Source of the DNA: an uncultured Bacteroidales bacterium
Lineage (GTDB): Bacteria > Bacteroidota > Bacteroidia > Bacteroidales > UBA932
Reading direction: 5' to 3'
Length of the DNA: 64,000 nt
Assembly: GCA_937900465.1 (NCBI GenBank)
Contig: CALCEJ010000155.1
Location: 403-64,402, forward strand
Part shown: one piece after another, positions 19,039-61,176 of the stretch
Position numbering within the stretch: the first letter of the stretch is position 1
Layout of the letters: the number at the start of each line of letters is the position of its first letter
The notes under the pieces: generated by a model
What the model was told of the DNA's origin: nothing
The model's input: only the letters and a program-made list of their open reading frames with translations
Database searches by the model: none
Translations under genes and position numbers: made by a program

Positions 19039-19182
19039 ATGAGCGATAACAGACTGTCCAAAGAAAGCACAGAAGCCCAGAGCTATGCACCTCCTGTCTG
19101 CCAGGAGATTTACATCAAGGTGGAGGGTATGATTTGCACCAGCCCAACTGAAAAGGTCGGTGAAACTGAAGGTGAATGGTAA
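19039..19182 (+). CDS. 47-aa small peptide preceding a fimbrillin gene
   Basis: Own translation MSDNRLSKESTEAQSYAPPVCQEIYIKVEGMICTSPTEKVGETEGEW; motif shared with two other peptides. Confidence 0.7.
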   Translation: MSDNRLSKESTEAQSYAPPVCQEIYIKVEGMICTSPTEKVGETEGEW

Positions 19183-19199
19183 TGCAGGAGGGAAAGGTT

Positions 19200-20759
19200 A
19201 TGAAAAAGACATTTGTATATAGCCTTCTGGCTATTTTGGCACTCACAGGCTGTCAGACCAAGGAACTGGAAACTTTCATTCCAGAGACCAATGAAGAAAC
19301 CATAATCCAGAAAGAAGAGACCAAGGTCTTTATTGCAACAATTGAGGATGATTTTGGGACAGAGACCAGAACCTCCCTTGATGGAGAGGGTAATGTCCTC
19401 TGGAAAATGGGGAACCAGGTTAGCATCTTTGCAGGAAGTACTCTCAATGAACAGTATCAGGTGTCAGATGCATCTGATGGAAAAACAGCTGCAACCTTGA
19501 ACAAGATTCCAAGTGGAAGCTTTGTTGCTGGAACAGAGATAGATAACAATGTGGCATTCTATCCTTATGCATCCACGGCGGAGATTGCAAAAAGTGGGAG
19601 TTCCTATGTCATCAGTGGGATTGAGCTCCCTGCAACCCAGACTTATGCAGCAGGCAGTTTTGGGGATGGAGCCTTCCCTATGGCAGCTGTCACCAGTTCA
19701 GCAGAGGATATGAACCTCAAATTTAAGAATGTCCTGGGAGGCCTGAAACTCCAACTCAAAGGTACAGCAAAAATTGTTTCCATCACCATCTCTGGAAACA
19801 ATGATGAGAAGCTTTATGGGGATGCAACTGTAACTATGAGCTATGGTGGAACACCCTCTATCAGTCTTTCAGATGCTTCTGCAAGGACTGTCACCCTGGA
19901 CTGTGGTGCAGGAGTAGCTTTGAATGCAGAAACTGCAACCCCCTTCATCATTGCACTTCCTCCTATGACTATGGAAGAAGGCTTTACAGTGGTGGTGACA
20001 GATACATGGGGCAAGGAGATGGAAATCTCCACTTCAAAGTCCCAGACCATCCCCAGGTCTAACCTGTTGAGGATGCCAGCTGTGGATTATGTTGTCTTGC
20101 CAGACGGTCCGGTTGATATGGGAATGGAAGTTCAATGGGCAAGTTGCAATCTCGGAGCATCAAATCCTATGGAATATGGAGATTATTATGCTTGGGGAGA
20201 AACTGCACCATATTATACAGATGGTCATAGTCAGGATTCCTATTGTTTCAGTTGGAGAGATGGTAAGACTGGCGGGTATACTTGGGACTCTTACTCGTGG
20301 TGTGGTGTATATAACTCGGACCCGGAAGGTGATACCGTAACCCTTACCAAGTATAATTCAGATGTCTCTTACGGAGCCGTTGATGATAAGTATGTGCTTG
20401 AAGCAGAGGATGATGCTGCGCAAGTAAAACTTGGTGGTAATTGGCGCATACCTAGGTATGAGGAATGGGAGTACCTCTATTCCTGTTCCACCTGGAGATG
20501 GATCACTCTGAATGGCATTAATGGTTATCTAGTCACCAGCACTATTAATGGCAACAGCATTTTCCTCCCCGCCGCCGGCTGGCGGTGCAGCATCAGCCTC
20601 GTGGATGTGGGTTCCATTGGATTATACTGGTCTTCCGACCTCAATACGATGATGCCTGACGCTGCTCTTGGCGTGTATTTAGTTTCTTCTTCTGTTGATG
20701 TGTGTAGTGGTTCGACGCGTTACTATGGAAATCCGATCCGTCCCGTCTATGAGCCTTGA
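19200..20759 (+). CDS. fimbrillin-family lipoprotein with C-terminal DUF1566/FISUMP-like domain
   Basis: LTGC lipobox, ETRTSL processing site, W..G.QVSIF, AFYPY, FKNVLG; GDYYAWGET, NSIFLPAAG. Confidence 0.8.
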   Translation: MKKTFVYSLLAILALTGCQTKELETFIPETNEETIIQKEETKVFIATIEDDFGTETRTSLDGEGNVLWKMGNQVSIFAGSTLNEQYQVSDASDGKTAATLNKIPSGSFVAGTEIDNNVAFYPYASTAEIAKSGSSYVISGIELPATQTYAAGSFGDGAFPMAAVTSSAEDMNLKFKNVLGGLKLQLKGTAKIVSITISGNNDEKLYGDATVTMSYGGTPSISLSDASARTVTLDCGAGVALNAETATPFIIALPPMTMEEGFTVVVTDTWGKEMEISTSKSQTIPRSNLLRMPAVDYVVLPDGPVDMGMEVQWASCNLGASNPMEYGDYYAWGETAPYYTDGHSQDSYCFSWRDGKTGGYTWDSYSWCGVYNSDPEGDTVTLTKYNSDVSYGAVDDKYVLEAEDDAAQVKLGGNWRIPRYEEWEYLYSCSTWRWITLNGINGYLVTSTINGNSIFLPAAGWRCSISLVDVGSIGLYWSSDLNTMMPDAALGVYLVSSSVDVCSGSTRYYGNPIRPVYEP

Positions 20760-21070
20760 CAATAAAAACAGATAGCTTCTGTTCTGAGGGTGCATTTGGA
20801 AGATGTGTCCAAATTGTGTCCAAAACTGGTGGATGCAAAAAGAAAAGACTTTGTAAGTTTCTGTAAAACAGTCACTTGCAAAGTCTTTCCTGTGCCTCGG
20901 ATGAGGGCAAAATACTTGGTGGCTGTGGGTGGATTTTGTGTATTCATTGGTGGATGCCCAAGGTCTTGACCTTTAAAAACTTGGTATTATTGCAACTGTA
21001 TCCAAAATAACCCCCAGAAATTGTGGTCAAATGTGTCCAACTTCTGGGGGTTGTGGTCAAATGTGGCCGA

Positions 21071-22432
21071 TTAGAAGAGGCAGTTCTCAGCACTCTTTGC
21101 AATGTCATCAGCATACTCATCAAGGGAGAGACGCACATACCTCTTGAAGGTGTCGTATTTCGTATGGCCGCTCAGTTTCATCATAAACTCCACTGAAAAT
21201 TTCCCCGATAGATAGACGTTGGTGATAAATGTCCTGCGAGCGGTGTGCAGCGATACCATTTCCCATCTGGCCTTGATAGGGAAACCTTCTGAATCATACT
21301 CGAAAAGTGTTTCCCCTTTCTTCCTTGCTTCCGCTTCCATCCTCTTCTCAGGGAGAGTGAGGATAGTTCTCTCCTTCTTCGCCAATGAGGGAATCGTGGC
21401 GGACAATCTCTCCAATGTGTTCTTGATGTTCCTGTTTATGCTGACATCCCAGAGTTTCGGGACGTTGTATTTATACTTTTCCAGCAGCACAATGAGGTTA
21501 TCATCCAGGATGGGAATGATGACAGGCGCTTTGGTCTTGCGCTGGATGATTCGAATAACAGGAGTTCCCAACTCCGTTCTACCAATACAGGATTCCGTTA
21601 TGCGGCACAAATCGCTATACCGCAATCCAGTGTAGCACCCGATCAGGAAGACATCACGGACAGTTTCATCGTAGCCGGACAGGGGCATAACAAACAGGGC
21701 CTGAATTTCTTCCTTTGACAGATAGATTCTGTTTTTCATCTCATCATCGTGCGCAGGGGCATACTTGATAAATGTCCTTGCCTTGACGTTATTGTGCCAT
21801 CCCTGATTCTCCGCATACACCACAAAAGCGTGGAATGCACTGATGTATCTCTTGATAGAGTTTTTGCTGTATCCGTAATCTTCGAGATAGGCAATGAAGT
21901 TATCTACCAGAGGCTGGTTGATATCGGACCATTCAATGTGATGAGTCTCCAAGTAATTGAGCATAACCCTTTTAAACTGGCGAAGGATATTCGTGGAAAA
22001 ATGGGCAAAAGTATCACCATAGGAGTGCCTTCGTGTGCCATCCACTGCACTATCTACATAGTATTCCAGTGAATTCCGAAAACTGTGCTTTATACGATGA
22101 ACAACCCGTTCTTTCTTCTTTTCTTTCTCCAAGAGCACTGTTCTTTTGTCATCCAGCACAATGCTATCAATAATAGAATCCACATTCTCCTTGGTAAGAC
22201 TGTGCTTTCTCCGCAAGTCTTTGATAGCGAACTCAATGTCCTGTATCTTTCTGGTGTAGCCCAGTTTGTCAAGGAGGTTACTGGTCTTCAATTCGCTGCC
22301 GGAGGCGGCGTTCCACTTCGCTATATCAACAGGGAGCATCAGATTCACCCAGGCGACATCTTCGCCCATTCTCAATTTCACGTAGAGAGTGGTCTTCCCT
22401 TCTTTCTTAGTTGTCCGTGTAACTACTTTCAT
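21071..22432 (-). CDS. tyrosine recombinase/integrase
   Basis: TGLRYSD, QRKT, HTARRTF, LSGH, Y catalytic motifs. Confidence 0.95.
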   Translation of the reverse strand: MKVVTRTTKKEGKTTLYVKLRMGEDVAWVNLMLPVDIAKWNAASGSELKTSNLLDKLGYTRKIQDIEFAIKDLRRKHSLTKENVDSIIDSIVLDDKRTVLLEKEKKKERVVHRIKHSFRNSLEYYVDSAVDGTRRHSYGDTFAHFSTNILRQFKRVMLNYLETHHIEWSDINQPLVDNFIAYLEDYGYSKNSIKRYISAFHAFVVYAENQGWHNNVKARTFIKYAPAHDDEMKNRIYLSKEEIQALFVMPLSGYDETVRDVFLIGCYTGLRYSDLCRITESCIGRTELGTPVIRIIQRKTKAPVIIPILDDNLIVLLEKYKYNVPKLWDVSINRNIKNTLERLSATIPSLAKKERTILTLPEKRMEAEARKKGETLFEYDSEGFPIKARWEMVSLHTARRTFITNVYLSGKFSVEFMMKLSGHTKYDTFKRYVRLSLDEYADDIAKSAENCLF

Positions 22433-22441
22433 CTCAATATG

Positions 22442-22801
22442 CTAAGCTATGTTCTTGATATACCCTTCTGCTTCTGCGGCAAGAACATCTTTCATTGAAT
22501 AGATTTTCTTCCTACCTTTAAGGGGTAGAGGGGCAATCTTTCCATCAATCTCCCAGTTGCGGAGAGTGTTTGGAGAGATATTCCACCTCTCGCAGAGTTC
22601 ACGGGCGGTGAGTGTTCTGTCATCATCCATAATGTCTGACGCTCTTTCATCAAGTGCCTCCTCCACAGCCTCACGGACAATATTTTTTACTGAAACGCGC
22701 AGCGCAAGAAGAAGATAGTTGATGACGCTAACGGTCTTGTCATTCAGGCCACACACATAAGGGGTGGTTATCTGCTGGTTTGTGCCAACTAACTGATTCA
22801 T
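22442..22801 (-). CDS. excisionase-like MerR-type HTH protein
   Basis: LTARELCERWNISPNTLRNWEIDG; immediately upstream of the integrase. Confidence 0.8.
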   Translation of the reverse strand: MNQLVGTNQQITTPYVCGLNDKTVSVINYLLLALRVSVKNIVREAVEEALDERASDIMDDDRTLTARELCERWNISPNTLRNWEIDGKIAPLPLKGRKKIYSMKDVLAAEAEGYIKNIA

Positions 22802-22880
22802 ATTTCTTGGATTTTTATTACCATTTTTCACAAAAATAACAAAGACGAGGGGGAACATCCATTCACCCAATATTGGCTCC

Positions 22881-23513
22881 TCAAAGCCCGAACATCTTCT
22901 TGATGCGTTGGACAGATGAGATGGACGTTCCTGACAGCACAGCGGTCTTCCGGACGCTGAAACCTTGGCGGAGAAGCTTGATGGTGGCCTTGTATTGCGA
23001 TTCATATTCCTCCTTGGGTTTGATTGAGCCTTTGTGGCGCCCAACTTTGCCACCTTTGGCCTTGTATGCCACCAACCCAGTCCGAAGGCGATATTCAATA
23101 GCACTTCTTTCAAGCTCAGCACAGGTGCCAAGGATAGACACAAAAATGGTCAGGAAGGGGGACTCTTTATGGTCTTTGAAGTTAAACAGGGACATATTCT
23201 CCTTCTCCATATAGATATTAAGACCTCTATCCTTCGCCCACTTGATGGTTTCCAGCACCTCATCTACCTTTCTGCCAAGGCGGTCAAGGGCGTTTACCAT
23301 CAAAAGGTCTATCTTGTTCTCAACACAGTAGGTAAGACACTCTTGCAGCACCAGACGCTCTGAGTTCTTTTTCCCACCACTTATCTTTTCAGAGAAAATT
23401 CTGTCTATTTCAACTTCATTCTTACCCGCCCACTGGGTGAGAGAGAATATCTGTCGTTCCGTGTTCTGTCTGTCTGTTGTGCTCGATACCCGAGCATAGA
23501 TGACTCCTTTCAT
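22881..23513 (-). CDS. serine recombinase (resolvase/invertase)
   Basis: MKGVIYARVSS, DRLGR, C-terminal HTH. Confidence 0.93.
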   Translation of the reverse strand: MKGVIYARVSSTTDRQNTERQIFSLTQWAGKNEVEIDRIFSEKISGGKKNSERLVLQECLTYCVENKIDLLMVNALDRLGRKVDEVLETIKWAKDRGLNIYMEKENMSLFNFKDHKESPFLTIFVSILGTCAELERSAIEYRLRTGLVAYKAKGGKVGRHKGSIKPKEEYESQYKATIKLLRQGFSVRKTAVLSGTSISSVQRIKKMFGL

Positions 23514-23533
23514 AATGTTTGTTTTTGGGTTTA

Positions 23534-24082
23534 TGTATTCAAAAAATGAGAAGCTCGATTGAATACACTTTTTGTGGTTGATAGGGGGTAATTCTGTTCT
23601 TTCTGGCTTCATTTACCGTATGTGGTGAAATCTTTGAGTTGTTTGAACACAGGGGGCTAATCAAGGATGGCATCAAGAAGGTCTTTGGCTGTGCTCCTGG
23701 CTATCTTGATATGAGTGGAGGATGGGCAAACTGTTGTGCAGTTGGCTGCGATACCGGCCAAAATGATGGCTGAGGTTATGACCAGTAGCTGGTCTTTGGA
23801 TAAGATGATAGATTGGTTCGGTGCTTCCATAAGCTTGTTCGTTTAGTAATTGAATACACCTTTCTATCTACCGATATTGCGCCGTAGTGTAGTGCGTCAG
23901 TCTGTTTTGTCGTTTTGTCGGGTTGTAATTGAATACAGAGGGGGATACAGCGTATTCAAAACAATGAGTTTCGCACGAAAACTTTCGCAGCAAAATCACT
24001 CGTCAGGATGCAGCAAATGCGTTTTTGAAAATACAATCGCAGACTTTCGTGGAAATCGCAGCAAGAAAAATGTATTCAATTA
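23534..24082. promoter_or_regulatory. Cluster of TTGAATAC/GTATTCAA motifs, candidate res site
   Basis: Motif at about 23534, 23559, 23850, 23929, 23952 and 24071 in both orientations upstream of the resolvase. Confidence 0.5.
23657..23830 (-). CDS. 57-aa hypothetical protein with a hydrophobic segment
   Basis: Own translation MEAPNQSIILSKDQLLVITSAIILAGIAANC... Confidence 0.45.
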   Translation of the reverse strand: MEAPNQSIILSKDQLLVITSAIILAGIAANCTTVCPSSTHIKIARSTAKDLLDAILD

Positions 24083-24205
24083 TGCGGTTATCAACCCCCG
24101 GGGGTTTTGTCAATTTTTTCTGTCAAACAGTATGTTCAGTGGAAGAAAAAAGGACTGGGTGAAAATCTCCCAGTCCCGGTGGTGGTAATGTGAAAATGAG
24201 GGGTA

Positions 24206-24997
24206 TCAGTCCCCTGGGTGGTGTATATCAGTAAGATTTGGACATCCACATACGGCCAGCAGGCGCTCATAGATGCCTTTGTCTATCAGGAACTCATTCA
24301 TTACACCTTCATTCAGCTCTCTTCCTGCTGCTGGAATTTCAGCGACAAATCCTGTTAGATTATGCTTTCTTTGGCAGATGCAGCACTCATTTATCAATTC
24401 TTTATCAATAAAGCAATAGGGCACATCATCACGATACCAAATATGATAGTTCTCGGTCGAGAACCCCGAAGGTGTCGTTCCAGAAAGGAAATACTCCTCA
24501 CAAAGGGCAAGATACCCTAAATAATTAGATAGGTGGGTTCTCCTCTTTTCGTTGAGTTCCACGTAGGTGACAATACCGTAGATGGAGTTGTATCCATCCG
24601 CTTTGTCCCACAGGATGTGATTAGGCAGCCAGATAGGGCGATTAAACAGAAATACGGTTGGTTCTATCTTCTTTTGCTCCCGGGCATGCTTGATTAGTGT
24701 CTCCAGCAGTGCAGGGTCGGTAATCTGGTGGTTATCCATATCACGGAGAAAGGGAGCCACGTCATTACTGTCTATCAGATAGAGCGTAAAGTCAATCCCT
24801 GGCTTTTCCTCTACGTTGTTCTCGCCCAAATAACAGAGATAGTCCCTTATGGCCTTGCGGAGAAATACTCTTTCTGTGGTTTTCTCTGGTATGGCCGTAA
24901 CGAAGCCGTAAAGTGTATCATAGTGAGTGTTTGACGAAGTGCTGTTATTCACGAGCACTGGGTGGTTTAGTTTAATAAGATAGTTTTTCATTTCCAC
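24206..24997 (-). CDS. hypothetical protein
   Basis: Long ORF in the island followed by a hairpin at about 24146-24178. Confidence 0.6.
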   Translation of the reverse strand: MEMKNYLIKLNHPVLVNNSTSSNTHYDTLYGFVTAIPEKTTERVFLRKAIRDYLCYLGENNVEEKPGIDFTLYLIDSNDVAPFLRDMDNHQITDPALLETLIKHAREQKKIEPTVFLFNRPIWLPNHILWDKADGYNSIYGIVTYVELNEKRRTHLSNYLGYLALCEEYFLSGTTPSGFSTENYHIWYRDDVPYCFIDKELINECCICQRKHNLTGFVAEIPAAGRELNEGVMNEFLIDKGIYERLLAVCGCPNLTDIHHPGD

Positions 24998-25204
24998 ATT
25001 AGTTTCTTTGTATAAGGTATTTATGGGAGAACTCCTCTCTTATCTCTAAAAGCAAAAAGAGAGAAGATAGGTCATCCTCTCCCTTATTCTGGTCTTGCAG
25101 CATATCAATCTTCGAGGAGCAAAGCGGAGCGAAGATTGCCCTGACAAGCGGAGCTTGAAACACCTCTTTCTGTCATCCTTTCTTTTACGTGTTTCTATTC
25201 TATC

Positions 25205-25428
25205 TGTTGTTGGCGTGCAACGCCAACAAGTAGTATATTTATTATACTATATATCCATATCGAACACTTAACTGTTTGATAATCAGCGATGATTTTCTTG
25301 GAAATTTTTGATTCTCCACCAATTTTTGCACAGAAAAACACACTTCTGGAAACCATACCGAACACTTTTCTCTATGTGGAACCTCCTTCCTGTCACCCCA
25401 TTATTCTTTTTTAAATCCATATCGAACA
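25205..25428. promoter_or_regulatory. Candidate replication origin (three CCATAYCGAACA repeats, hairpin, AT-rich tract)
   Basis: Repeats at about 25255, 25353 and 25417; TTGTTGGCGT-GCA-ACGCCAACAA hairpin. Confidence 0.4.
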
Positions 25429-25431
25429 ACC

Positions 25432-26166
25432 TTAATCCTTTACATACTCCTTAATCCACTGATACATCCTTCCTACACTTATCTCTATACCGTGTTGTTT
25501 CAGCTCTACCACATTCTTTCTGACTGATAGTCCTGGATTATACCAAGTCTTTATCTGCTTATCAGTAATCTCTTTCTCTGTCCTATTCTGCCACCTGACT
25601 ATATCAGCCTGTTTCATCTTCCTAGTCATATCAGGGTCAAAAGCAAACCTTCTTGTGTCCTTCCTGGATTCGCAGTCAATCTCATCTGGTTCCTTTTTGC
25701 AGGCTGCCTGACACAGTTCTCCTACCTTTTGCTGGTTCTCCCGGGTGCAATTAAACACTTTATCAACAAACCTTAAATATTTGGTTAAGAAAGAGATAGC
25801 ATAGTAATACATTTCAAATGCTGCATCTATCCCGATCTTCCGAAGAAACAGAATATAGCTGTACAAGTCTGTTATTACCTGGTCCTTATCCTTGCAGAAC
25901 ACTTTGTCTTTGTAGAGTGTCTGGTCTTTATCCTTATAGACCCTGCTGGTGGAAAATATCATCCAGCTACCATCATTGTAGGCGACACCGTCTTCGTATG
26001 TCTTCTTGGATTCGTAGATTCCCCATTTGTTTCTCACGACTCTATATGCAATCTTGCTCTCATCTATCCCTCCGTGTTCTGCATCCCGGACAAAATTCTG
26101 GTATAGACTTGCCCTTAACCTCTCCCAGTCATCCATCTTATGTATCTTGAGACCTTTCTTCTGCAT
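25432..26166 (-). CDS. hypothetical, Rep-like protein with C-terminal HTH
   Basis: C-terminal YNPGLSVRKNVVELKQHGIEISVGRMYQW; adjacent iteron-like repeats. Confidence 0.45.
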   Translation of the reverse strand: MQKKGLKIHKMDDWERLRASLYQNFVRDAEHGGIDESKIAYRVVRNKWGIYESKKTYEDGVAYNDGSWMIFSTSRVYKDKDQTLYKDKVFCKDKDQVITDLYSYILFLRKIGIDAAFEMYYYAISFLTKYLRFVDKVFNCTRENQQKVGELCQAACKKEPDEIDCESRKDTRRFAFDPDMTRKMKQADIVRWQNRTEKEITDKQIKTWYNPGLSVRKNVVELKQHGIEISVGRMYQWIKEYVKD

Positions 26167-26410
26167 TATAAACAAATCGCATCGCAACTTACTTGGGTGC
26201 TCACTCCCGTTCAGTTACGATGCTTTTGCTTATCTTTTATGTATATATGGCTGTCCGGACTAATGTGAGCAACATCCTTCGCAACCAGTGTGTTCTATTA
26301 TATTTATGTTCGTCCCCGATATTAAATATAACAGCTTTTTCGACGATTCAGTTCCCATAAATAATATGAGGGGGGAACGCTCCTCGACATATAAAATAAT
26401 CCACAGTGTA

Positions 26411-27238
26411 ATGGGAAAATGCAAATCAAAGCAGATAGGCACATTTGCCGAGTTCTGCAAATCAAGAAGAAAAAAATCTATCAATGAGAACAGCGAGGTC
26501 GCCGTTGAGGTTCCATTCTGGGACGACGCCATCAAACTATTGCTGGATAAAATTCACGGCATCGCAGGAACCCCTATCTCTTGGCGGCGTCTGGTCGATT
26601 ATGTGCAAAAGGTATTCATCGTAACCGGCAGGGAGCTGGATGATGACTACAGTATGGTTCAGTCCTTCATCACCGACACCCTCTTCTGGGAATATGGTTC
26701 AGCCTGGATAGATAGCGACGCGGACTACAATTATGCAACCGCTGAACTTGGCAGCAAGGCTCTTGTTATATCCGCCCTGGCAAATGAGATACTAAACTTG
26801 GTAGAGCGTGATTCTGGAGATACGGTAGCCAAACTCTATATGACCACCCCTCCGAAGGAAGACCTCTTTGAGGAAGGCAGGGTTGCAGACTTTACAAAAT
26901 TTGCAAGGTTGCTAAGGGAAAGTGTCCATATTATCTCTTGTCAAGATGGCGGGAAAACACTTGATTATGTGCTTGATAAGATAAGTCAGGACGCCGGCAG
27001 CCTCCATCTGGATGATGTGCTAACCGTGATTCGAGATAATGGATATGATGACCTGGAAGCGTACATATCCGCCATTGTCGCAGAATATCTTGACAACCTT
27101 GCAATTGAGCTAAACAGCGAGCAAGTCATTGACCCGAAGGTGATCGAAGTCGCACGAAAACAGTTTGCGTTCGAGATAACGAAGACGGTGCTGGGGAAGA
27201 TAACTGATGAAACACTCAATAACCAAGGAAGGGGATAA
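26411..27238 (+). CDS. hypothetical protein
   Basis: Long ORF with a downstream hairpin at about 27223-27257. Confidence 0.6.
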   Translation: MGKCKSKQIGTFAEFCKSRRKKSINENSEVAVEVPFWDDAIKLLLDKIHGIAGTPISWRRLVDYVQKVFIVTGRELDDDYSMVQSFITDTLFWEYGSAWIDSDADYNYATAELGSKALVISALANEILNLVERDSGDTVAKLYMTTPPKEDLFEEGRVADFTKFARLLRESVHIISCQDGGKTLDYVLDKISQDAGSLHLDDVLTVIRDNGYDDLEAYISAIVAEYLDNLAIELNSEQVIDPKVIEVARKQFAFEITKTVLGKITDETLNNQGRG

Positions 27239-27451
27239 GCACAACACCCCTTCCTTGATAGATGGTTTTCCTAGGCGGTAGGGGTTATTGCCTCAGATGA
27301 CACAATCTTGGGGTTGGTAGAAAATAGATTCCAGGATCGCAAAAGTATCAGCCCATAATTGAGCCCCTGCACCATTAAAACAACAAGAAAATGCAGTTTC
27401 TGTTTTGACCGATCCAATCTTTTCGTAACTTTGTACAAATATGTTGCGTGT

Positions 27452-28363
27452 ATGACATTGTTTGAAGATACCATACAAGCCCGTCCATTTATTAAATGGG
27501 TTGGAGGAAAGACACAGTTGCTGGATGAAGTGGCAAAATCTCTGCCGAGAGACTTCGCCACACGTCAGCATCTTACGTATGTAGAGCCCTTTGTGGGTGG
27601 CGGTGCCGTGATGTTCTGGATACTTCAGGCATATCCCAACATTGAGCATGCTGTCATAAATGACATCAATAAAGAACTTATCTGCACCTACCAAGTCATC
27701 AAGGAGAATGTTGAGGCGTTGATTTCTGAACTCACCCACATACAACAAGAATATATCCCTTTAAATGCGGAGGATAGAAAGAGTTATTTCCTTTCCAAGA
27801 GAACCCGCTTCAACACGAAGCAAGCAGACCCGGTTGAAACAGCGGCATTGTTCATTTTCCTAAACCGAACCTGTTTTAACGGACTCTATCGTGTCAATTC
27901 CAAGGGTGAATTCAACGTTCCCCACGGCAAATATGCAAATCCTCGAATCTGCGATGCGGAGAATCTACGAGCTTGCTCTAAAGTCCTACATAAGGTGGAA
28001 ATCCTCTGCGGTGACTTTGCGGAAACCGGGCGATATGCTGGTCCTAATACGCTCTTCTACTTTGACCCTCCGTACAAACCAATCACAGATACTTCCTCTT
28101 TCACTTCCTACGCCAAGGAAGGGTTCAATGATGCTGAGCAGATTCGCCTCCGTGATTTCTGCGACCAGATAAGCAAAGACAAAGCCCTGTTTGTGGCAAG
28201 CAACTCGGACCCAAAGGACGTGAATCCTAAGGAGAACTTCTTCGACACCATCTATAACCATTTCATCATCAAGCGTGTTTCAGCTGCCCGAATGATAAAC
28301 TCCGATGCTTCTGGTCGCGGCGCTGTTTCTGAACTGATGATTTCCAATGTAGTTAATGCATAA
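27452..28363 (+). CDS. Dam/DpnM-type DNA adenine methyltransferase
   Basis: KWVGGKTQL, EPFVGGG, FNGLYRVN, DPPY motifs. Confidence 0.95.
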   Translation: MTLFEDTIQARPFIKWVGGKTQLLDEVAKSLPRDFATRQHLTYVEPFVGGGAVMFWILQAYPNIEHAVINDINKELICTYQVIKENVEALISELTHIQQEYIPLNAEDRKSYFLSKRTRFNTKQADPVETAALFIFLNRTCFNGLYRVNSKGEFNVPHGKYANPRICDAENLRACSKVLHKVEILCGDFAETGRYAGPNTLFYFDPPYKPITDTSSFTSYAKEGFNDAEQIRLRDFCDQISKDKALFVASNSDPKDVNPKENFFDTIYNHFIIKRVSAARMINSDASGRGAVSELMISNVVNA

Positions 28364-50437: not shown

Positions 50438-50438
50438 A

Positions 50439-50642
50439 TTACTCTCCGTCTTCAGGGGTGTAATCCGGATCTTCTCCGTCATTCCAACCGTCAGCGCTCA
50501 CAGAGGGGACGACCTGCCTCGCCAAAGCCTCCTCCCGGGCCCTTATTTCAAGGGCCTCCTCCGGGTCCATTGATTCCCGGCGGCAGGAAAGAGCGGAAAT
50601 CATAAGGATTCCCGTCGCTATTGCAAGTAAGAGTCTTCTCAT
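50439..50642 (-). CDS. small lipoprotein
   Basis: LSC lipobox; V.ADGW C-terminal pilin-like strand; in operon. Confidence 0.6.
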   Translation of the reverse strand: MRRLLLAIATGILMISALSCRRESMDPEEALEIRAREEALARQVVPSVSADGWNDGEDPDYTPEDGE

Positions 50643-50649
50643 AGGGCGC

Positions 50650-51882
50650 TTATTCGTTCTTCGTTACAACAAGTTTGTACCCGTCGTGGATGAACTTGAC
50701 GTGGTATGAACCATCCTCGGGATAGATGACCTTTTCGTCGTCCAGCCCGGTTCCGAGCACGATGTCAAGGGAATTCGGATCTGCGACGAGATAGCTTTCA
50801 GAGTCGAATTCTCCGAGTGCATAGTACATCCAGGCGGTAGCCATTCCGGCCTGCCTGTCCCATCCCTTGTCCCAGCGAAGCTTGAAAACGTTACCGGCGG
50901 CATAGGTGATGTCCGCTTCCCAGACGCCTTCCCAGGGCTCCGTGCCGGTGGAGGTCTGAGTCATATCGAAATCAGTGCTCCAGTCGCTGCCGTTCACGGT
51001 GCCGATGATGCTCCACACCGGGTCGTTCAGCTCATAGTCAAGGCTTCCGCCGTCTTCCCATCCGGTAACGGTGAAGGAGAAGCCGACGGCCTCCCCGTGC
51101 TCAGGATCCGGAGGTGTGACTGAAGGATTGAGGGTAAGCGAAGCCGTCGCTGCCGCTCCTGCCTTGAACTCGAAGGCCGATGCAAGGACGAACGTGAAGG
51201 TCTTGCCGCTTTCCGTCGTTACGACGATGCGGGGAGCCGCCTTCTGGGGCATTACAATGAGCCCATAGCTGTTGTCCGCGAGCTTCGTGGCCTCGACGTT
51301 GACAGGGCTCACGCCCTCAGTGCTGACAGAACCTTCTGAGAGGTTCAGCGTACCATTCATCAGGACTCCGTTGACGGAAACCTGGCTTACAGGGTCGTTG
51401 TCAAGTTTGTTGGTGACGTTTACGAAAATCTTCGAGAACGGATGTCTGAACTTCAGCGCCACGGTGGTATTGGGGGTTGCGTCAGCCGTTGCCGCCATAT
51501 ACAGGTTGTGGTACTCGAAATTATGGGCCCCTTCGTATAGAAGGTTGTACTCGAAGGTGGAGACAGTCTGGTTTTCGTCGGGGTAAATCGCGACGAAGTT
51601 GGTCTGTGTGGCCTGGTCCTTGACCCAGTAGATGGGCGAGGAGAGTTCCAGGCCGCCACCGGCGGTAACGGTTGCCGTTGCGACGGCGTTGATAGGCGTT
51701 CCGGCTATGATCCGGATCTTGTCGCCGGCCTCAAGGGACGATTCGGTCGCCCTGGTGAAGCCGTAGGTGTCGTAGGATGCGACGAATTTCACCTCCCTTG
51801 AGGACTCGCAGTCAAGGGCGTCGTTCCTGGAGCATCCGATAACCGCAGCCGCAATGGCGAGGATTATTGATATCCTTTTCAT
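50650..51882 (-). CDS. fimbrillin-family lipoprotein with C-terminal SusE/F-like module
   Basis: IGC lipobox, FTRA, FVAIYP, FRHPFSK, MPQ; WSIIG..WSTDFDM..FKLRW. Confidence 0.78.
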   Translation of the reverse strand: MKRISIILAIAAAVIGCSRNDALDCESSREVKFVASYDTYGFTRATESSLEAGDKIRIIAGTPINAVATATVTAGGGLELSSPIYWVKDQATQTNFVAIYPDENQTVSTFEYNLLYEGAHNFEYHNLYMAATADATPNTTVALKFRHPFSKIFVNVTNKLDNDPVSQVSVNGVLMNGTLNLSEGSVSTEGVSPVNVEATKLADNSYGLIVMPQKAAPRIVVTTESGKTFTFVLASAFEFKAGAAATASLTLNPSVTPPDPEHGEAVGFSFTVTGWEDGGSLDYELNDPVWSIIGTVNGSDWSTDFDMTQTSTGTEPWEGVWEADITYAAGNVFKLRWDKGWDRQAGMATAWMYYALGEFDSESYLVADPNSLDIVLGTGLDDEKVIYPEDGSYHVKFIHDGYKLVVTKNE

Positions 51883-51896
51883 AGAGCAGTGGGGGA

Positions 51897-53150
51897 TTAT
51901 TCAGCAGCGCCGTTACGGACGTACGAGAGAGCGAGGGTGCTGGAATTGAAGGTAACGGTATAGTTGCCGGATGTCTCGGGGAACTTGATGTTCTTCTGAT
52001 GGTCTCCGTCAGTCCCGAGAGTGTAAGGATCCGTGCCGATATTGTCGGAGCCATTCCACATACCGTAGTAGGTCTCTCCAAGACGGACCTTGAAGCCCTT
52101 TCCGGACTCGTCGTCAGTCATTGCTTCGTCATAGTTGACGGTAATGCTCCAGCTGTTCTCCGCCCCGGGAGTCATATAGTAGTAGGTCGCCCAGGCGTCA
52201 GCGCCCTTATCGTCAGTTGCATATACGCAGCCGCCGATCTGGACATAATTGCCCACGGTAGGGTCTCCGATGGTTCCCACGGTAGTTGCATCTCCGTCAG
52301 TCCAGTCGACAGTGTCGAAGGTGAGGGCGCCAACGGCGGTGCGTCCGCCGTCGATTCCGCCCACGGGATTGAGCGTGACGTTTGCGGTAGCGGTCTTTCC
52401 GGCCTGGAAGGTGTAGTCACCGGTGATGCGGAAGGTATAGACGGAACCAAGGGTGGTGGTTACGACGATGTCCATTGCTGCGGTTGCGGCCTGGGGAAGG
52501 AGGATGAGCTCGTAGCGGGTTGCGCTGGCGGCATAGGCGTGGACGTCGCTGTATGTGTCAGCGGCGACGATGGTTGCGGGAGCGGTCGACATATCGAATG
52601 TCGTGGCGTTGAGCTTGACCTGCTTCATTACTACGGAAGCGACGGCGTCGGAACCAAGATTGTTGGTGATGCTTACTACAACCTTTGCGAAGGGGTGCTT
52701 GAAGCTGAAGGCGACGGTGCCGGGATCCGGGGATGCGCTCTGGACTGCGGTCATCACATTTGCGTGATATGTGTATGTGTCTTCCGCGGTCTGGTCTTCG
52801 GGGATATTATAGGCTCCGCTGACGCCAGCGCCATCCGCATAAGGATAACGGGCCACGAAGGTTGATGCGGCGGACTGGCCTACACCCCAGTAAATCGTAG
52901 TTGAAGGGGTAAGCGTGCTGCCGGAAACCGTAGCCTGGACGTTGTTTGCGCCAAGGTCGGCGGCATAGATACCGACATTCGAGCACCCCTCCTCGCCCAG
53001 CTCGAGAGTTGCGCTCTTAAAGGAATATGTTCCAAGATTTTCGACCGTGAAACGCACGGCCCTCTGGCCCATTGAGGCCTCGTTTTCCACTTTGTTGCAG
53101 GCCACGAGGGCTGTGGCCAGGACTGCAACTGCAAGTAATGCTTTTTTCAT
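51897..53150 (-). CDS. fimbrillin-family lipoprotein with C-terminal CBM-like module
   Basis: VAC lipobox, FVARYPY, FKHPFAK, LPQ; GFKVR..NIKF..GNYTVTFN. Confidence 0.78.
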   Translation of the reverse strand: MKKALLAVAVLATALVACNKVENEASMGQRAVRFTVENLGTYSFKSATLELGEEGCSNVGIYAADLGANNVQATVSGSTLTPSTTIYWGVGQSAASTFVARYPYADGAGVSGAYNIPEDQTAEDTYTYHANVMTAVQSASPDPGTVAFSFKHPFAKVVVSITNNLGSDAVASVVMKQVKLNATTFDMSTAPATIVAADTYSDVHAYAASATRYELILLPQAATAAMDIVVTTTLGSVYTFRITGDYTFQAGKTATANVTLNPVGGIDGGRTAVGALTFDTVDWTDGDATTVGTIGDPTVGNYVQIGGCVYATDDKGADAWATYYYMTPGAENSWSITVNYDEAMTDDESGKGFKVRLGETYYGMWNGSDNIGTDPYTLGTDGDHQKNIKFPETSGNYTVTFNSSTLALSYVRNGAAE

Positions 53151-53170
53151 CGTGTTTATGGTTTTAAGTG

Positions 53171-56100
53171 TTAATTAAGTTCAAATACTACGGAGCTGTA
53201 GCCCGGGAGGGTTACGGTTGCTCCGTCGGAAATATTGCCGCTGACGGAGACGCGGCCGTTGGAGACGAGGATGTTGTCATTTGATACGTTCTCGCCCGGC
53301 CAGCGGGTTACATCAGTGGTGTAGGAACTGAAGTTGTGAAGGACGAGGACGACTTTGTCGCCGTCAACCTGGTGGAGGTACCATCCGGCAATGTGCCCGT
53401 CGTAGCCTCCATAGGTGCGTTCATCGGCTTCAGGCCAGCCGTTCGCGAGGGCGGGGTTCGTGTTCCTCGCATAAGCGAAGTGGCGGTACAGGCTCAGCAG
53501 GGAGGTCTCGTCATCCTCCTGGGATTCGACGCTTATCGATGCGGTAAGCATATTCCAGTCGACCTTGTTCGAGACGCCCTTCGAGGCGGCGCTGGAACGG
53601 GACGGGGTCCACAGGATGGGCGTACGGACGTACTCGTCGCCGCCGGCCTTTGTGCCCCAGTAGCCAAGCTCCTCGCCCTGATAGATGTAGGGCCTTCCGG
53701 CAGCCGTGAGAAGCACTGCCGCGGCCTGACGGATCTTGGGCTTGTAGTTGCCAAGGCTGGACGCGGTGCGGTCCTCGTCGTGGTTTGCAAGCTTCGGGGT
53801 GGAGATCGCATCGGCCCGATAGGCCCTGTGGCCGTTCCAGCGGTAAGGCAGTGAGCCGGGGAAGTGCTGGCCGTAGCCGGCGTTATGGATTGTCTCGCCG
53901 TTGAGGCAGTTCCTCAGATCCCACCAGAACTGGAATTCGAACAGGGCGGGAAGGCCGGAGTAGAACGGCGAGCAGTCGCCGTCGCCGGAAAGCACTTCAC
54001 CGACCATGAATATGTTCTCGTCCACGATTCCGCTGAGGCCGGCGCGCTTATCGGCATTGGCCTTGTAAATCTTGTTGCACTCGTTGTAGAATGTATTCCA
54101 GAAGGTCTTGTTCTCCGGGCCGGTTTCGTTGGCGTAGATATGCTTTACCGCGTCGAGGCGGAATCCGTCCACGCCCATTCCGAGCCACTTTTCGACGCCC
54201 GTCATTATCGCCTTGAAGGCGGGGCTGGAGGCACACTGGTCCGCTTTTCCGTAGTTGAAGTCCACGAACATTCCGGTGCCGAATTCGGTGTAGTAGAAAT
54301 ACATTTCCCCTCCTGGCATAACTATGTTCTGGACCGCATCGCTTTCGCCGGAATAGAGGGTATGGGCCTCGCCGTCCTTAAGCTGGTCGCCGCTGCCGTT
54401 GAATCCCCACTTGGTGCCCTTTGACCAGTCATCGGCCTTGGTCGTACGGATAAGGCAGCCCCAGTCGGACTCGAAGTCCAGGATGAGCCTGTACTTGTTC
54501 GTTCCGTTGTCGTAGAACTGGGTGTAGGTGCTGTTGCCCCAGAACAGGTAACGGGCGGGATTGTTGGTCGTTCCGCTTGTCGTGGGGGCTTCAGTCGTCT
54601 TCGACACCGTGATTGTCGGGGCCGATGCGTTCGTCCAGTCGAGGTCTATCTTGAAACGCTGTTTTCCGCCTCCGCCAACAAGGACCGGGAACCACTTGTA
54701 TCCGTTGTAACCGAAGCTTGCGGGAATCTGGTCGATCTTCCCGGCCTTGATGTCAGCTTCGGGAGTCTTCGTGATGGAATAATAGTCCCAGTACTCGCTC
54801 TCAGGACCCTTCTTCTTTATGTCCAGGAACCATTTGTTCTGGTCGCCGGAATGATTCATCACGTAGTCCATATAGATGCGGATATTGTGCTTATGGGCCT
54901 CCGTGATAAGGTTCTGGAAGTCTTTTTCCGTGCCGAAGCGGGGATTGACCGCCTCGTAGTCCGTGACGTCGTAGCCGTGGTAGGACTGGGCCGGCTGGAT
55001 GGGGGAGAGCCAGAGCGCGGTGACGCCCATCCTGTCGAAGTAGTCGAGGCTCTGGGTTATTCCGTTGAAGTCTCCGTAGCCGTCGCCGTTACTGTCCTTG
55101 AAGGAGAAGACGTTCACCTGGTAGGTGATGCCTCCCGCCTTGTTCCCGACAGGCAGGGATTCGTCGTAGGTGCCCCCGAGATAGTAGTCCGGCCTTCCGT
55201 CGGCCTCGTGGGTCCACTCCGTTCCGGCTTCGAGGACATACAGGATCTTGTTTTCCGCGGAGAGGTAGATGTCGTATCTGCCGCCGGTCGCAAGCTTCAT
55301 ATTGCCGGCACCCTGGGCGACGTCCGTCTTCGCTCCGACGGTTATCGTGTTGCCGCTTTCACTTTCCGGCCCGTAGCCGAAGTTCGTACCCCAGCTGCGG
55401 TTCTGGCGGAACTTGAACATTTCGCCGGCGGCGATTTCCAAATCGCGCGCAACCTCCCAGTACCCTTCCGTGTCCATCGGGAAATCGACGTTCCACTCCG
55501 TTCCGCCGATGGTGCCGATTATCGTCCAGGAACTGCTTCCGAACTTGACTTCCACGGGCTCGACGCCCTTTCCGGAGACTCCGGGGTCGGAGGGATCCTC
55601 GACGGCGGTGAGTGTTGTGCCGTCCCACGTGAAGTAGAGGCTGGAGTGTATCGTCAGGTCGCTCCAGAGGGGATCCTTCTCATCCGGCTTCGGGTATTGA
55701 TTCCCCTTGCCGTCGTTCAGGATAAGGTTGATTCCGCCCACTCCGCTGAAGCCTGCGGCCTCCCAGTAGGTGTAGAGGTAATCGCCGAAGGATTTCGTTC
55801 CGCCGGCGTAGGTTCCGGGCCAGGCGCCGTAAGGCTGCATTCCGCCGCCGTCGCCAACATAGGCATACATATACGGGGTTGTCCAGGTGGAATTGTTCAG
55901 GACGTAGATCCTGGTGTTTTCGCCTTCCTCCTGCTCGTTCGTCGCATCGCCGTGGGCAAAGACGTCTCCGGCTTTTTCGACGTAAAGGATCATAAAGTTT
56001 GGCTGGACGTAGAGGTCGTAGGTGCCGGGACTCAGCTTGATGTTGCCGCCGTCGTCGGCAAGGATGTACTTCTTGTCGAGGGAAGGATTTCCGCTTCCGG

Positions 56101-56713
56101 CACCGAGGTTCGTCGCCCAGTCGCCGTTCATCCTGAACTTGAACTCCTCGCCGGAAGCGACCGTGACGTCGAACGCCGCCATCCAGCCGCCGGGCTCTCC
56201 GAGCATAGGGATGTCATCCCCGCCGGAGCCCCAGTTAAGGCCCATAATGGATCCGGTGACGCCCCAGTTCGTAGTTTCCGTAAACTCGCTCCTGTCGATG
56301 ACCTGGCCGGGCTCTTCCTTGGCGCCTGCGGCCGCTTGGGAGACGGGGAGGTCAACTGAGACGGACGGGTCTGATTTCAGAGCGATGCGGAGAGTGGTCT
56401 CGCGGGGATCGTCGCTGTCGTTGGAAGGGGCGACGGCGGTGACGGTCGTCGTGCCGCTGCCCTCGGCGGGGGACAGTTCAAGCCAGTCTGCCTCGCACTC
56501 CGCGGCCCAGATTTCCTCTGAGGTCACGGTGAAGGTCTTCGTTGCTCCTTCTCCGACAAAGTTCAGACGCACGACGCTGGTCTTGATCTTGTCTGCGCCG
56601 GGGACGACCGGATCGTCCGTGTTGTCGGGCTCATCCCTGCGGCAGCCGGCAAGGACCGTCAAAATGCAAAGTGCAGCGGTTGAGGCTGCCCTTGAAAAGA
56701 ACTTGCAGTCCAT
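53171..56713 (-). CDS. GH13 alpha-amylase lipoprotein (SusG-like) with BACON and starch-binding modules
   Basis: DSNGDGYGDF, LWLSPI, YHGYDV, DYVMNH, GFRLDAVKH, VGE, NHD, YQGEELG motifs. Confidence 0.92.
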   Translation of the reverse strand: MDCKFFSRAASTAALCILTVLAGCRRDEPDNTDDPVVPGADKIKTSVVRLNFVGEGATKTFTVTSEEIWAAECEADWLELSPAEGSGTTTVTAVAPSNDSDDPRETTLRIALKSDPSVSVDLPVSQAAAGAKEEPGQVIDRSEFTETTNWGVTGSIMGLNWGSGGDDIPMLGEPGGWMAAFDVTVASGEEFKFRMNGDWATNLGAGSGNPSLDKKYILADDGGNIKLSPGTYDLYVQPNFMILYVEKAGDVFAHGDATNEQEEGENTRIYVLNNSTWTTPYMYAYVGDGGGMQPYGAWPGTYAGGTKSFGDYLYTYWEAAGFSGVGGINLILNDGKGNQYPKPDEKDPLWSDLTIHSSLYFTWDGTTLTAVEDPSDPGVSGKGVEPVEVKFGSSSWTIIGTIGGTEWNVDFPMDTEGYWEVARDLEIAAGEMFKFRQNRSWGTNFGYGPESESGNTITVGAKTDVAQGAGNMKLATGGRYDIYLSAENKILYVLEAGTEWTHEADGRPDYYLGGTYDESLPVGNKAGGITYQVNVFSFKDSNGDGYGDFNGITQSLDYFDRMGVTALWLSPIQPAQSYHGYDVTDYEAVNPRFGTEKDFQNLITEAHKHNIRIYMDYVMNHSGDQNKWFLDIKKKGPESEYWDYYSITKTPEADIKAGKIDQIPASFGYNGYKWFPVLVGGGGKQRFKIDLDWTNASAPTITVSKTTEAPTTSGTTNNPARYLFWGNSTYTQFYDNGTNKYRLILDFESDWGCLIRTTKADDWSKGTKWGFNGSGDQLKDGEAHTLYSGESDAVQNIVMPGGEMYFYYTEFGTGMFVDFNYGKADQCASSPAFKAIMTGVEKWLGMGVDGFRLDAVKHIYANETGPENKTFWNTFYNECNKIYKANADKRAGLSGIVDENIFMVGEVLSGDGDCSPFYSGLPALFEFQFWWDLRNCLNGETIHNAGYGQHFPGSLPYRWNGHRAYRADAISTPKLANHDEDRTASSLGNYKPKIRQAAAVLLTAAGRPYIYQGEELGYWGTKAGGDEYVRTPILWTPSRSSAASKGVSNKVDWNMLTASISVESQEDDETSLLSLYRHFAYARNTNPALANGWPEADERTYGGYDGHIAGWYLHQVDGDKVVLVLHNFSSYTTDVTRWPGENVSNDNILVSNGRVSVSGNISDGATVTLPGYSSVVFELN

Positions 56714-58450: not shown

Positions 58451-58456
58451 AGGCGG

Positions 58457-59104: not shown

Positions 59105-59175
59105 AAAGTTAATCATTTTCCTCTCCTCGTGTCCCATCCCTTGCTCCCGGCCCGTTGCCCCTTCGCCCCGCCTCC

Positions 59176-59272
59176 GCACAAGGTCTGATTTCACGCCCGA
59201 CACCTTGTGCGCTTTTTGTCCCCAGATACCCTTTTCCGCACAAGGTCCCCCGCCTATAATCAGACCTTGTGC
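59176..59272. repeat. REP/MITE-like nested palindrome, copy 2
   Basis: GCACAAGGTCTGATT / AATCAGACCTTGTGC; same 97-bp span as 15814-15910. Confidence 0.8.
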
Positions 59273-59322
59273 AAAAAAGCCACCCCAGAAGGAGTGGCTA
59301 AAATAAACGAGAGGATATTACA

Positions 59323-60627
59323 TTAAAGATTTGCCCCCCAGATATCTCTGTTAATAGTTACACCACTTTCATTCTTGGACTCCCAGCCAGCATTACACTC
59401 GTTGTAAAAGCGGTACTTAACGGTCTTTGTGCCATAAACGGAAGTGGCGAATTCGTAGTAAAAAATGTAGCCGTTATTGTCGGCATTCCTTTCTTGAATT
59501 GCGTTGGTATCCGGAGTTGATAGTCCATCCCACGTGACAAATTTAACCACGGAAGTCCCCGAACCCTGAGTTTGCCATATTGTCCATTGGCTATCGCTCA
59601 TATATACATAGATCCTGTATGTGGTTTTCAAAGAGCTTTCGGTTGTATCAAAAGTAAAGTCGCGATAGAGCCAAACGGCATCTGAGGCAGACACATAAGT
59701 GCCGTTTTTGAATACTTGCAAACAAACGGGATCACCTGTTTTTGACCAGCTCAATGTCGGAAGAATACACCACTTTGTGGTGCCGTCAGAAAGGACGTTG
59801 AGTGTAAGGTAGGACTTGGTTTCATAGTTGATGGTAGAGCCGTCTGTTGCGAAGAAACGTGCTTCGTCGACCTTGTCGTCGTCGTTGAATACAAAGATAT
59901 GACCGTCAACATCCACCGGCTTCATATTCTTAATTGTTCCTGCGGTGAAGGACTTTGCTGAAGTGGTGGACTTTGTTGCGATGTCATTGCTGTTGTCATC
60001 CTGAACGGACACGGTGAAGGTGGTCGTAGAGGCATCAACAGGAATATATGCAACGACAGTTCCGCGGGAGCCGAGGGAAATGCCAGAAACCGTCACGTCA
60101 TTAACGTCTCCGTCAAAAACCACCTTGTTCGCAAACGTAGGCACATTCGTAAACGTTACCTTCAGGAGGGCGTTCTGATGGCTGAGGGTCACAGCGTTGT
60201 CGGATATGGTTCCGGACATCCTGATTGCATCGGCACCAAGTGCGCCGGCGAGGCTGGCGATTTCGGTGGGGAGAGCGGTGTCGCTGAAGTCTGCGGTATA
60301 AGGATATTTTACCTCAGCGGGGGTGCCGTTCATCGTTCCGGTATAGGTGAAGCGGGCGGACTGGCTTCCGCCGGTTTCGGCAGTGAACTGGTAGACATCG
60401 CCCGTGGTGGTCTTAACAGCGATAGCGTCGCCAGCAGTCCAGGTGAAGGTTCCGTCAGTGCTAGAGATTGCGGCTTTGGTGTCAGCGTCGACAAGGTCCG
60501 GGATGGACACGAAGAGTTCGTGAATGTCCGATCCGTTGGTGGCGGCGAGGTCATCATTGATGCTGGCCTCTTTTGCGCAGGAGGCAAGGGCTGCGACGGC
60601 AGCGAGAATGTAGATGTACTTTTTCAT
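59323..60627 (-). CDS. fimbrillin-like lipoprotein
   Basis: LASC lipobox, DTKA, WTAGDAI, YPY, HQNALLKV motifs. Confidence 0.72.
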   Translation of the reverse strand: MKKYIYILAAVAALASCAKEASINDDLAATNGSDIHELFVSIPDLVDADTKAAISSTDGTFTWTAGDAIAVKTTTGDVYQFTAETGGSQSARFTYTGTMNGTPAEVKYPYTADFSDTALPTEIASLAGALGADAIRMSGTISDNAVTLSHQNALLKVTFTNVPTFANKVVFDGDVNDVTVSGISLGSRGTVVAYIPVDASTTTFTVSVQDDNSNDIATKSTTSAKSFTAGTIKNMKPVDVDGHIFVFNDDDKVDEARFFATDGSTINYETKSYLTLNVLSDGTTKWCILPTLSWSKTGDPVCLQVFKNGTYVSASDAVWLYRDFTFDTTESSLKTTYRIYVYMSDSQWTIWQTQGSGTSVVKFVTWDGLSTPDTNAIQERNADNNGYIFYYEFATSVYGTKTVKYRFYNECNAGWESKNESGVTINRDIWGANL

Positions 60628-60646
60628 AATCGTTCCGATTTTAGTA

Positions 60647-60787
60647 TTACCAATCCTCTTCGCTGCTGTCCCATCCAGAGACATTTCCTCCTCGTACGGT
60701 TCCTACGGATCCGTCCAGGAAATCCTTTTCGAAGCGAACCTCCGTCATCTCAGTGACGGGCGCGTCGTAGCTTTGTTTTTTGTCCAT
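60647..60787 (-). CDS. 46-aa small peptide preceding a fimbrillin gene
   Basis: Own translation MDKKQSYDAPVTEMTEVRFEKDFLDGSVGTVRGGNVSGWDSSEEDW. Confidence 0.72.
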   Translation of the reverse strand: MDKKQSYDAPVTEMTEVRFEKDFLDGSVGTVRGGNVSGWDSSEEDW

Positions 60788-60858
60788 AGTGTTATAATTT
60801 TTAATTTGTATTTTCCTTTTCTCCGTCCCCCGCAGCTTTTCTCCGTCCCCGCAGCGGA

Positions 60859-61014
60859 CTTTATCTTGCTGCTAATGATTTGGCTATCAAACGCCACAAA
60901 TGCAACAAATGCCAAATCCTTGCAAATATAGCATTTTCTCCCAAAGATTATCCTTTTTTCTGAAAGAAAAAGCTCATCCCCCTTGATATTCACACCCTTA
61001 GCAGCAAGATAAAG
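60859..61014. promoter_or_regulatory. Putative invertible promoter
   Basis: IR CTTTATCTTGCTGCTAA 60859-60875 / TTAGCAGCAAGATAAAG 60998-61014; TATATTTGCA on the minus strand at 60921-60930. Confidence 0.75.
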
Positions 61015-61041
61015 ACAATATAAACACAAAATGATAACACG

Positions 61042-61176
61042 ATGAAAGAAAAAATGTTTTACACAGCTCCTGAGATGGAGCAAGTGGTGGTTAAAGCAGA
61101 GGTTAACTTCCTGACTAGCGGATCAGCTTCCGTAGAAACTCTTAATAAAGTCGACGGATCTTGGGACGAGGATTAA
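61042..61176 (+). CDS. 44-aa small peptide preceding a fimbrillin gene
   Basis: Own translation MKEKMFYTAPEMEQVVVKAEVNFLTSGSASVETLNKVDGSWDED. Confidence 0.72.
   Translation: MKEKMFYTAPEMEQVVVKAEVNFLTSGSASVETLNKVDGSWDED

Follow-up and report, generated by a model that had tools for sequence, protein, structure and literature searches.

A family of short leader-and-core peptides encoded directly upstream of type V pilin-like lipoproteins in Bacteroidales: candidate LPP-like precursors and proposed trans donor strands

Three short open reading frames (ORFs) in a 64,000-nucleotide stretch of DNA from an uncultured Bacteroidales bacterium (contig CALCEJ010000155.1, positions 403 to 64,402; hereafter the window) belong to a large unnamed family of peptides, and chance ORFs are ruled out. 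The genes of this family are coding and under selection, and lie 2-25 nt before a gene for a pilin-like lipoprotein, often with a Shine-Dalgarno (SD)-like site. The model favoured here, with a probability of roughly 0.55 on the basis of sequence and analogy, is that the peptides are the precursors of exported, modified cores, resembling the products of the linear polyphosphorylated peptide (LPP) pathway, which would serve as trans donor strands of the adjoining type V pilin-like lipoproteins. Processing of the peptides by an LPP-like cassette is considered likely, and, should such processing occur, a donor-strand role is the likelier fate of the core. An earlier note on this DNA had offered a trans donor strand or chaperone, and a processed leader-like peptide, as alternatives; the evidence points to the processed leader being true alongside the donor-strand idea.

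The three ORFs translate as the earlier note had claimed, into peptides of 47, 46 and 44 amino acids; the gaps that separate them from the downstream ATGs, located at 19200 (+), 60627 (-) and 61198 (+), measure 17, 19 and 21 nt, respectively (Table 1). The claimed lack of a signal peptide holds, with a best 12-residue Kyte-Doolittle mean of 0.3-1.1, as does the T[KR] processing site of the neighbours, which lies at around residues 41-57 in all three of them; a lipobox Cys is likewise present in each. Searching a four-row peptide profile against 1.84 billion representatives (E<=0.001) matched 97 proteins, of which 94 are short (37-103 aa), and between eight and nine matches occur in each of five related genomes (G001-G005). 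These five relatives, together with 201 genomes sampled from the order, were used for genome-wide tests, the window's FolD being closest (82-83%) to that of rumen Ca. Cryptobacteroides-type metagenome-assembled genomes. In a sample of the phylum the peptide was detected in 1/200 other genomes, with a profile that is biased to this genus. No match to the peptides was found in Pfam, NCBIfam or the PDB, only unnamed clusters were matched in the ESM Atlas (score 0.91), and a literature search, which covered few subscription papers, returned no description of the peptide family or of a link between pilins and RiPPs, peptides that are ribosomally synthesised and then modified post-translationally.

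Conservation over 178 peptides is concentrated in an N-terminal leader (Tyr1, 97%; Pro4, 100%; Glu7, 75%; Glu14, 88%), with a Ser at positions 18-22 in 170 of them. The remainder is acidic and mostly 10-30 residues long, with Gly-rich cores of median charge -4, and the peptides look two-part, a conserved leader being followed by an acidic, aromatic-ended core. The Trp that had been described at or near the C-terminus is common but not universal: it is the last residue in 52/178 peptides and lies six or fewer residues from the end in 110/178, while Trp, Phe or Tyr occurs within the last four residues in 142/178. Leaders and cores can be found in new combinations, P0005 being a subfamily mosaic of a P0003-like leader and a P0006-like core. 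A ratio of non-synonymous to synonymous substitution rates (dN/dS), proposed earlier as a check, indicates purifying selection on the homologues of peptide 1 (0.26 overall; core 0.20, leader 0.28), although this estimate is rough, as dS is near saturation and the pairs are not independent. It was obtained from 11 gap-free homologues of 14 (L197 and L208 were dropped for indels and L205 as a duplicate), among which third codon positions vary most. This selection signal shows the peptides to be coding, and chance ORFs were rejected on the same signal together with the enrichment of leader scores before pilin-like genes relative to controls.

Table 1. Peptide genes, pilin-like neighbours and associated features in the window
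Feature	Position	Strand	Description
Peptide gene 1 (47 aa)	19039..19182	+	YxAP..E..S leader (Tyr16-Ser35) and 12-residue acidic core ending in Trp
Shine-Dalgarno-like AGGAGG	19186..19191	+	Between peptide 1 stop and pilin start
Lipoprotein, 519 aa	19200..20759	+	Cys18, putative anchor strand 43-48, Thr-Arg 56-57 site, predicted type V pilin double beta-sandwich to ~residue 298
Pilin-like lipoprotein, 434 aa, partner of peptide 2	59323..60627	-	Thr-Lys site; row of pilin profile A8
Peptide gene 2 (46 aa)	60647..60787	-	Leader/core layout as in peptide 1
Intergenic region	60788..61041	.	Two divergent peptide-pilin units on either side
Peptide gene 3 (44 aa)	61042..61176	+	
Pilin-like lipoprotein, 387 aa, partner of peptide 3	61198..62361	+	Thr-Lys site; E 5e-6 to pilin part of 19200 protein

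A dedicated partnership with pilin genes, as the earlier note had supposed, is well supported by co-location tests. Starting from the peptides, 62 short matches of at least 14 bits were considered, three of them at a locus edge, and 50 of the 59 usable peptides directly precede a lipoprotein gene (47/56 without the window's own). Starting from the pilins, 15 metagenome loci were located with the pilin domain as the sole query, and in 14 of them a free peptide lies 10-16 nt upstream. With a broad pilin profile 228 matches were obtained, of which 150 were listed, and regions were fetched around most of these; 141 genes were classified, with ten lacking a called signal and four at edges dropped from the set. 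Among the matches listed, a leader score of at least 8 precedes 45/141 pilin-like genes as opposed to 0/493 non-pilin controls, and 22/113 of the pilin-like genes that were neither first found via a peptide nor used in profile building. With a looser leader rule 73 genes are called, a few of them falsely. Peptides are also found in G360 directly downstream of cargo proteases of the type IX secretion system (T9SS), of the C10 and M6 families (L141:304-5198 and L142:7993-12116), and not upstream of pilins.

The N-terminal half of the peptides looks like a RiPP leader of the type bound by a RiPP recognition element (RRE), and the evidence points to a tie with a kinase/peptidase/ABC exporter cassette. 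At L136, an exception to the pilin rule, the peptide is followed by a kinase gene. In G360 an operon encodes, in order, a peptide, an HprK-like kinase, an S24/S26 peptidase, PqqD, NTP_transf_5 and an ABC exporter, while in G312 two successive peptide-pilin pairs and those five cassette genes form a single run. The NTP transferase lies inside the cassette in G360, G312, G337 and G124. Peptidases carry a G.SM.P motif (7/7) and the kinases checked an H[AS]..G.SG.GKST motif (7/8). PqqD adjoins the peptidase and exporter in 5/5 close relatives, each of which has one kinase; no peptide was detected in the 20 kb around PqqD in these genomes (G001-G005), their peptides being scattered elsewhere. Among the 201 order-level genomes, PqqD occurs in 135 and is uninformative by itself (p 0.17), and because it is so common the kinase was used to measure co-occurrence. 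Kinases were found in nine genomes and peptide matches in eleven, two of which are false matches in long ORFs, with eight genomes shared; leaving out the seed genome, the co-occurrence has a p value of 4e-10, which is not corrected for kinship and retains the false matches. Searches of PDB sequences with PqqD and the kinase returned nothing significant.

According to its description (Popov et al. 2026, PMC13381572), the LPP pathway includes a kinase that phosphorylates Ser3 of the core and a SpI-like peptidase that cuts the RRE-bound YxxP leader. The systems appear to share an SpI-like serine peptidase, a stand-alone RRE, a kinase of HprK-like type, in some of the genomes an NTP transferase, and an exporter that resembles MsbA, without a lasso cyclase, and their precursors share a YxxP leader, a conserved Glu closely followed by a conserved Ser, and a C-terminus that varies. 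The precursor gene lies within the cluster in G360 and G312, as it does in LPP, whereas in G001-G005 none was detected around PqqD. By contrast, the LPP consensus is YxxPxVLxHQxIxFETxxS and that of the present family YxAPxxExxxVxxExxx[LC]xS, which lacks VLxHQ and FET and sets Ser about six residues from Glu rather than four. LPP is described as restricted to Bacillota, with clusters that lie near capsule loci and contain one to three precursors, and with a function unknown to its describers; here the hosts are Bacteroidota, and at least eight precursors per genome are scattered before pilin genes, with a single cassette elsewhere. The main text of that description makes no mention of pilin, surface or words beginning with Bacteroid or fimbri, and its supplement holds five Bacteroidota peptidase rows to which no precursor is assigned. 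The peptidase, discrete RRE, kinase and exporter that make up an LPP cluster could be recognised by sequence in the relatives only. Since leader consensus, phylum and gene layout differ, the system is classed from its sequences as LPP-like and not as LPP. Paeninodin-type lasso clusters (PMC7533575, PMC13381572) likewise combine a YxxP/WxxP leader, a PqqD-like B1 protein, an HprK-like kinase and a nucleotidyltransferase, whereas the peptidase here is S24/S26-like. The ORF listings of the cassettes read show neither a B2 peptidase nor a macrolactam cyclase, with no genome-wide search made, and lasso precursors were rejected as candidates on the lack of a cyclase in these cassettes.

Related clusters of other composition were also observed. 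The cluster of L111 and L347 (G026:C43:290674-298003) encodes a kinase, an S24-like peptidase, an ABC exporter, a probable NTP transferase and, as labelled from inspection, a radical SAM-like protein, alongside a peptide with a similar leader and an Arg-rich core. L186 and L191 are separate lasso-like clusters of G354, with PqqD, asparagine-synthase-like genes (labelled from inspection) and a WxxP peptide; this genome has peptide-pilin units as well.

Of the pilin-like neighbours, the protein encoded at 19200 is predicted to fold as a type V pilin. The model of its residues 1-300 has a mean predicted local distance difference test score (pLDDT) of 81, and the top eight Foldseek rows are Bacteroides type V pilins (template modelling score 0.3-0.45), the best matches being 3t2l (E 2e-8), 3ufi and 3sy6. 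The type V hallmarks, namely a lipoprotein signal, an anchor strand and a basic site, are recognisable in its sequence and model; cleavage is predicted at Thr-Arg 56-57, which sits in a low-confidence (disordered) loop. FimA and Mfa1 (PMC13655056) likewise combine a lipoprotein signal, anchor strand and basic cleavage site with a double beta-sandwich. The label 'fimbrillin', given to the neighbours in the earlier note, found no backing from Pfam on the window neighbours; it is based on the predicted fold of the 19200 protein, on a profile match of all three, which are themselves rows of that profile, and on PF13149 matches in 6/46 neighbours of peptides in relatives. Pilin-like genes number 36-51 per close relative genome with the broad pilin profile. 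After about residue 298 the 19200 protein continues into a domain with weak FISUMP/Lcl-like matches, and across P0101-P0220 its 250 aa pilin scaffold is 75-84% conserved while the C-terminal cargo is swapped (LRR_5, Big_2, Lcl_C). Profile-profile comparison of the peptides with the pilin detected no internal homology.

Core-like tails that appear to be fused to upstream proteins lend the idea of a trans donor strand some indirect support. At L203, the fifteenth of the pilin-first loci, there is no free peptide, and the upstream Big_2 protein instead ends in a core which retains all five invariant residues of E-x-V-x-E-x-x-G-x-W. Because a core-only profile (14 positions) gave only noise-level matches over 301 genus genomes (best E 0.04), fusions were counted from the fetched loci, where long ORFs ending at most 35 nt from the pilin start were scored by a composition model for which library cores had served as the training set. 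Leaderless core-like tails were scored in 16/51 of these long ORFs, each the immediate upstream neighbour of a pilin gene, as compared to 5/92 other pilin-like proteins (p 9e-5) and 1/234 held-out controls. Canonical stalk-like pilins also score highly, which ties the make-up of the core to ordinary donor ends. Furthermore, in 14 pairs of close pilins the similarity of the cores rises (0.37 vs 0.18) and that of the leaders does not (0.31 vs 0.29). Set against a type V donor strand, which is a hydrophobic C-terminal segment of about 20 residues forming two strands, the cores are C-terminal, mostly 10-30 residues long and mostly aromatic near the end, yet acidic and less hydrophobic than the Mfa1 donor. 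Type V tip pilins lack donor strands (PMC13655056), and the C-terminus of another chain replaces the anchor strand after cleavage. The known donors are the C-termini of full-size lipoprotein pilins, whereas the donor proposed here would be the 10-30 residue core of a peptide that lacks a signal, or else an acidic tail borne by an adhesin. In a monomer model of the mature part of L334, a pilin with its own core-like tail, this tail (454-469) is unstructured (pLDDT <50), with an alignment that did not cover it and a proposed partner that is another chain.

The proposed sequence of events would begin with binding of the YxAP leader by the stand-alone PqqD/RRE, as suggested by the motif, the operons and the co-occurrence. 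The conserved Ser near position 20 would be phosphorylated by the HprK-like kinase, the leader removed by the soluble S24/S26 peptidase, a further group possibly added by the NTP transferase, and the core exported from the cytoplasm by the MsbA-like ABC exporter. The neighbouring lipoprotein would be a tip-type pilin, with a C-terminus that is a swappable adhesin or enzyme domain and not a donor strand, as the fused tails and the type V mechanism suggest. The core would then enter the pilin groove and, following T[KR] cleavage, displace the anchor strand. A secreted upstream protein that carries the core as its C-terminal tail would need no leader. Passage across the outer membrane may, as one possibility, involve binding of the core to the open groove of the C-domain in the periplasm and travel with the lipoprotein.

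Several observations weigh against this model. No tail resembling the core was found in 35/51 of the upstream long ORFs, and core and pilin similarity are not significantly correlated over all 52 pairs (Mantel r 0.045, p 0.12). Nor do 14 fused tails exceed the average in their similarity to the core that belongs to the nearest pilin (0.181 vs 0.188). Cores can be only 12 residues long and are less hydrophobic than the donor region of Mfa1, which has 11 hydrophobic residues in 21 (PMC13655056). The cassette is absent from the window, its presence in the window's genome being inferred from relatives at ~78-83% FolD identity; NTP_transf_5 was found in only 3/5 close relatives, no peptide was detected in G124, which has a cassette, and no kinase in G395, which has a peptide. 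Nine of the 59 peptide matches do not precede a lipoprotein gene: two lie after T9SS proteases and two before other secreted proteins, one heads a cassette, three have other neighbours and one is a false match. The binding, modification and export of the cores are proposals of the model, and the route of the core across the outer membrane is not explained by the model.

Alternatively, the peptides would be LPP-like RiPPs co-expressed with surface proteins, with a core that acts as a phospho-linked tether, tag or signal binding elsewhere on the partner or the envelope, and not as a donor strand. This is considered rather unlikely, even though all of the cassette evidence applies to it. The low hydrophobic content of the cores, the peptides that flank T9SS proteases and other secreted proteins without a pilin groove, and one Chlorobi-like cluster pairing a similar leader with an Arg-rich core are consistent with it. 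However, it leaves unexplained why leaderless tails are specific to ORFs before pilin genes (16/51 vs 5/92), and why the free peptide is replaced by a fused core at L203.

The junctions themselves raise the question of translation. SD sites are rarely used by Bacteroidota. GGAGG or AGGAG occurs before 22/52 pilin starts that follow a peptide, as opposed to 5/60 that follow a long ORF and 21/493 control starts, the latter being first ATGs that may be misplaced. Together with the tight spacing, these SD-like sites suggest that peptide and pilin are likely made together. Both features would also be expected if the ORFs were upstream cistrons that, on being translated, bring about coupled initiation at the lipoprotein gene, the peptide having no role outside the ribosome. 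This reading is quite improbable, as it does not predict the fixed YxAP..E..S leader, a core under stronger selection than the leader (in one subfamily), the operons and co-occurrence with a RiPP cassette, or the fused tails; coupling is read instead as a means of matching peptide and pilin amounts and not as the whole function. An unprocessed peptide acting as a cytoplasmic or periplasmic chaperone, with a leader beta-strand capping the pilin groove during export, would fit the alternating beta-strand-like pattern of the leader and its invariable encoding beside the client, but is very improbable, given that RREs bind this same pattern (PMC13381572), that the core and not the leader varies with close pilin partners, and that fused forms retain the core and not the leader. 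A cytoplasmic chaperone role gains no specific support from these comparisons.

If the donor-strand model is correct, a structural part of a pilus comes from a RiPP pathway, joining peptide natural-product chemistry to pilus assembly, and a role is suggested for the LPP-type kinase/peptidase/RRE/ABC cassette. In Cryptobacteroides-like rumen Bacteroidales, where most of the 36-51 pilin-like genes per genome end in adhesin or enzyme domains, the model bears on how these proteins are completed and retained at the surface. The arrangement would also constitute a natural modular display system, with a conserved pilin scaffold, swappable cargo and a short cognate peptide. A bolder extension, which is tentative and on balance doubtful, is that the RiPP is itself a structural pilus subunit: one cassette would mature a genome-wide library of peptides, the cores of which zip into their cognate tip pilins, with the phospho-Ser, to which the NTP transferase would have added a glycan or lipid extension, replacing the entire stalk and anchor, so that the cell would display dozens of interchangeable adhesins and enzymes in the form of one-subunit pili. 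Should this be so, the orphan LPP chemistry would gain a function, that of surface anchoring.

Further features of the window concern the surroundings of these units. A lipoprotein of 820 aa (16555-19017 +), which contains a long coiled coil and a partial pilin-like region and is FISUMP-like at its end, stops 21 nt before peptide 1, with neither a core-like tail nor an upstream peptide of its own. Peptide-pilin unit 1 lies in an island of lower GC content (16000-28000; 0.40-0.46 vs 0.52), which also carries a tyrosine integrase (21071-22432 -) along with a resolvase (22881-23612 -), and the unit is likely situated on a mobile element. The intergenic region between units 2 and 3, which likely holds putative divergent promoters, includes two near-identical tandem copies of ~19 nt each (60819-60857 +). 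Finally, the region 49799-56713 (-) encodes a SusG-like amylase and, following it, two pilin-like lipoproteins that have no peptides, along with an outer-membrane protein, which we take to be DUF3575-like; by sequence it appears to represent a type V-like operon that lacks peptides and is tied to starch use.

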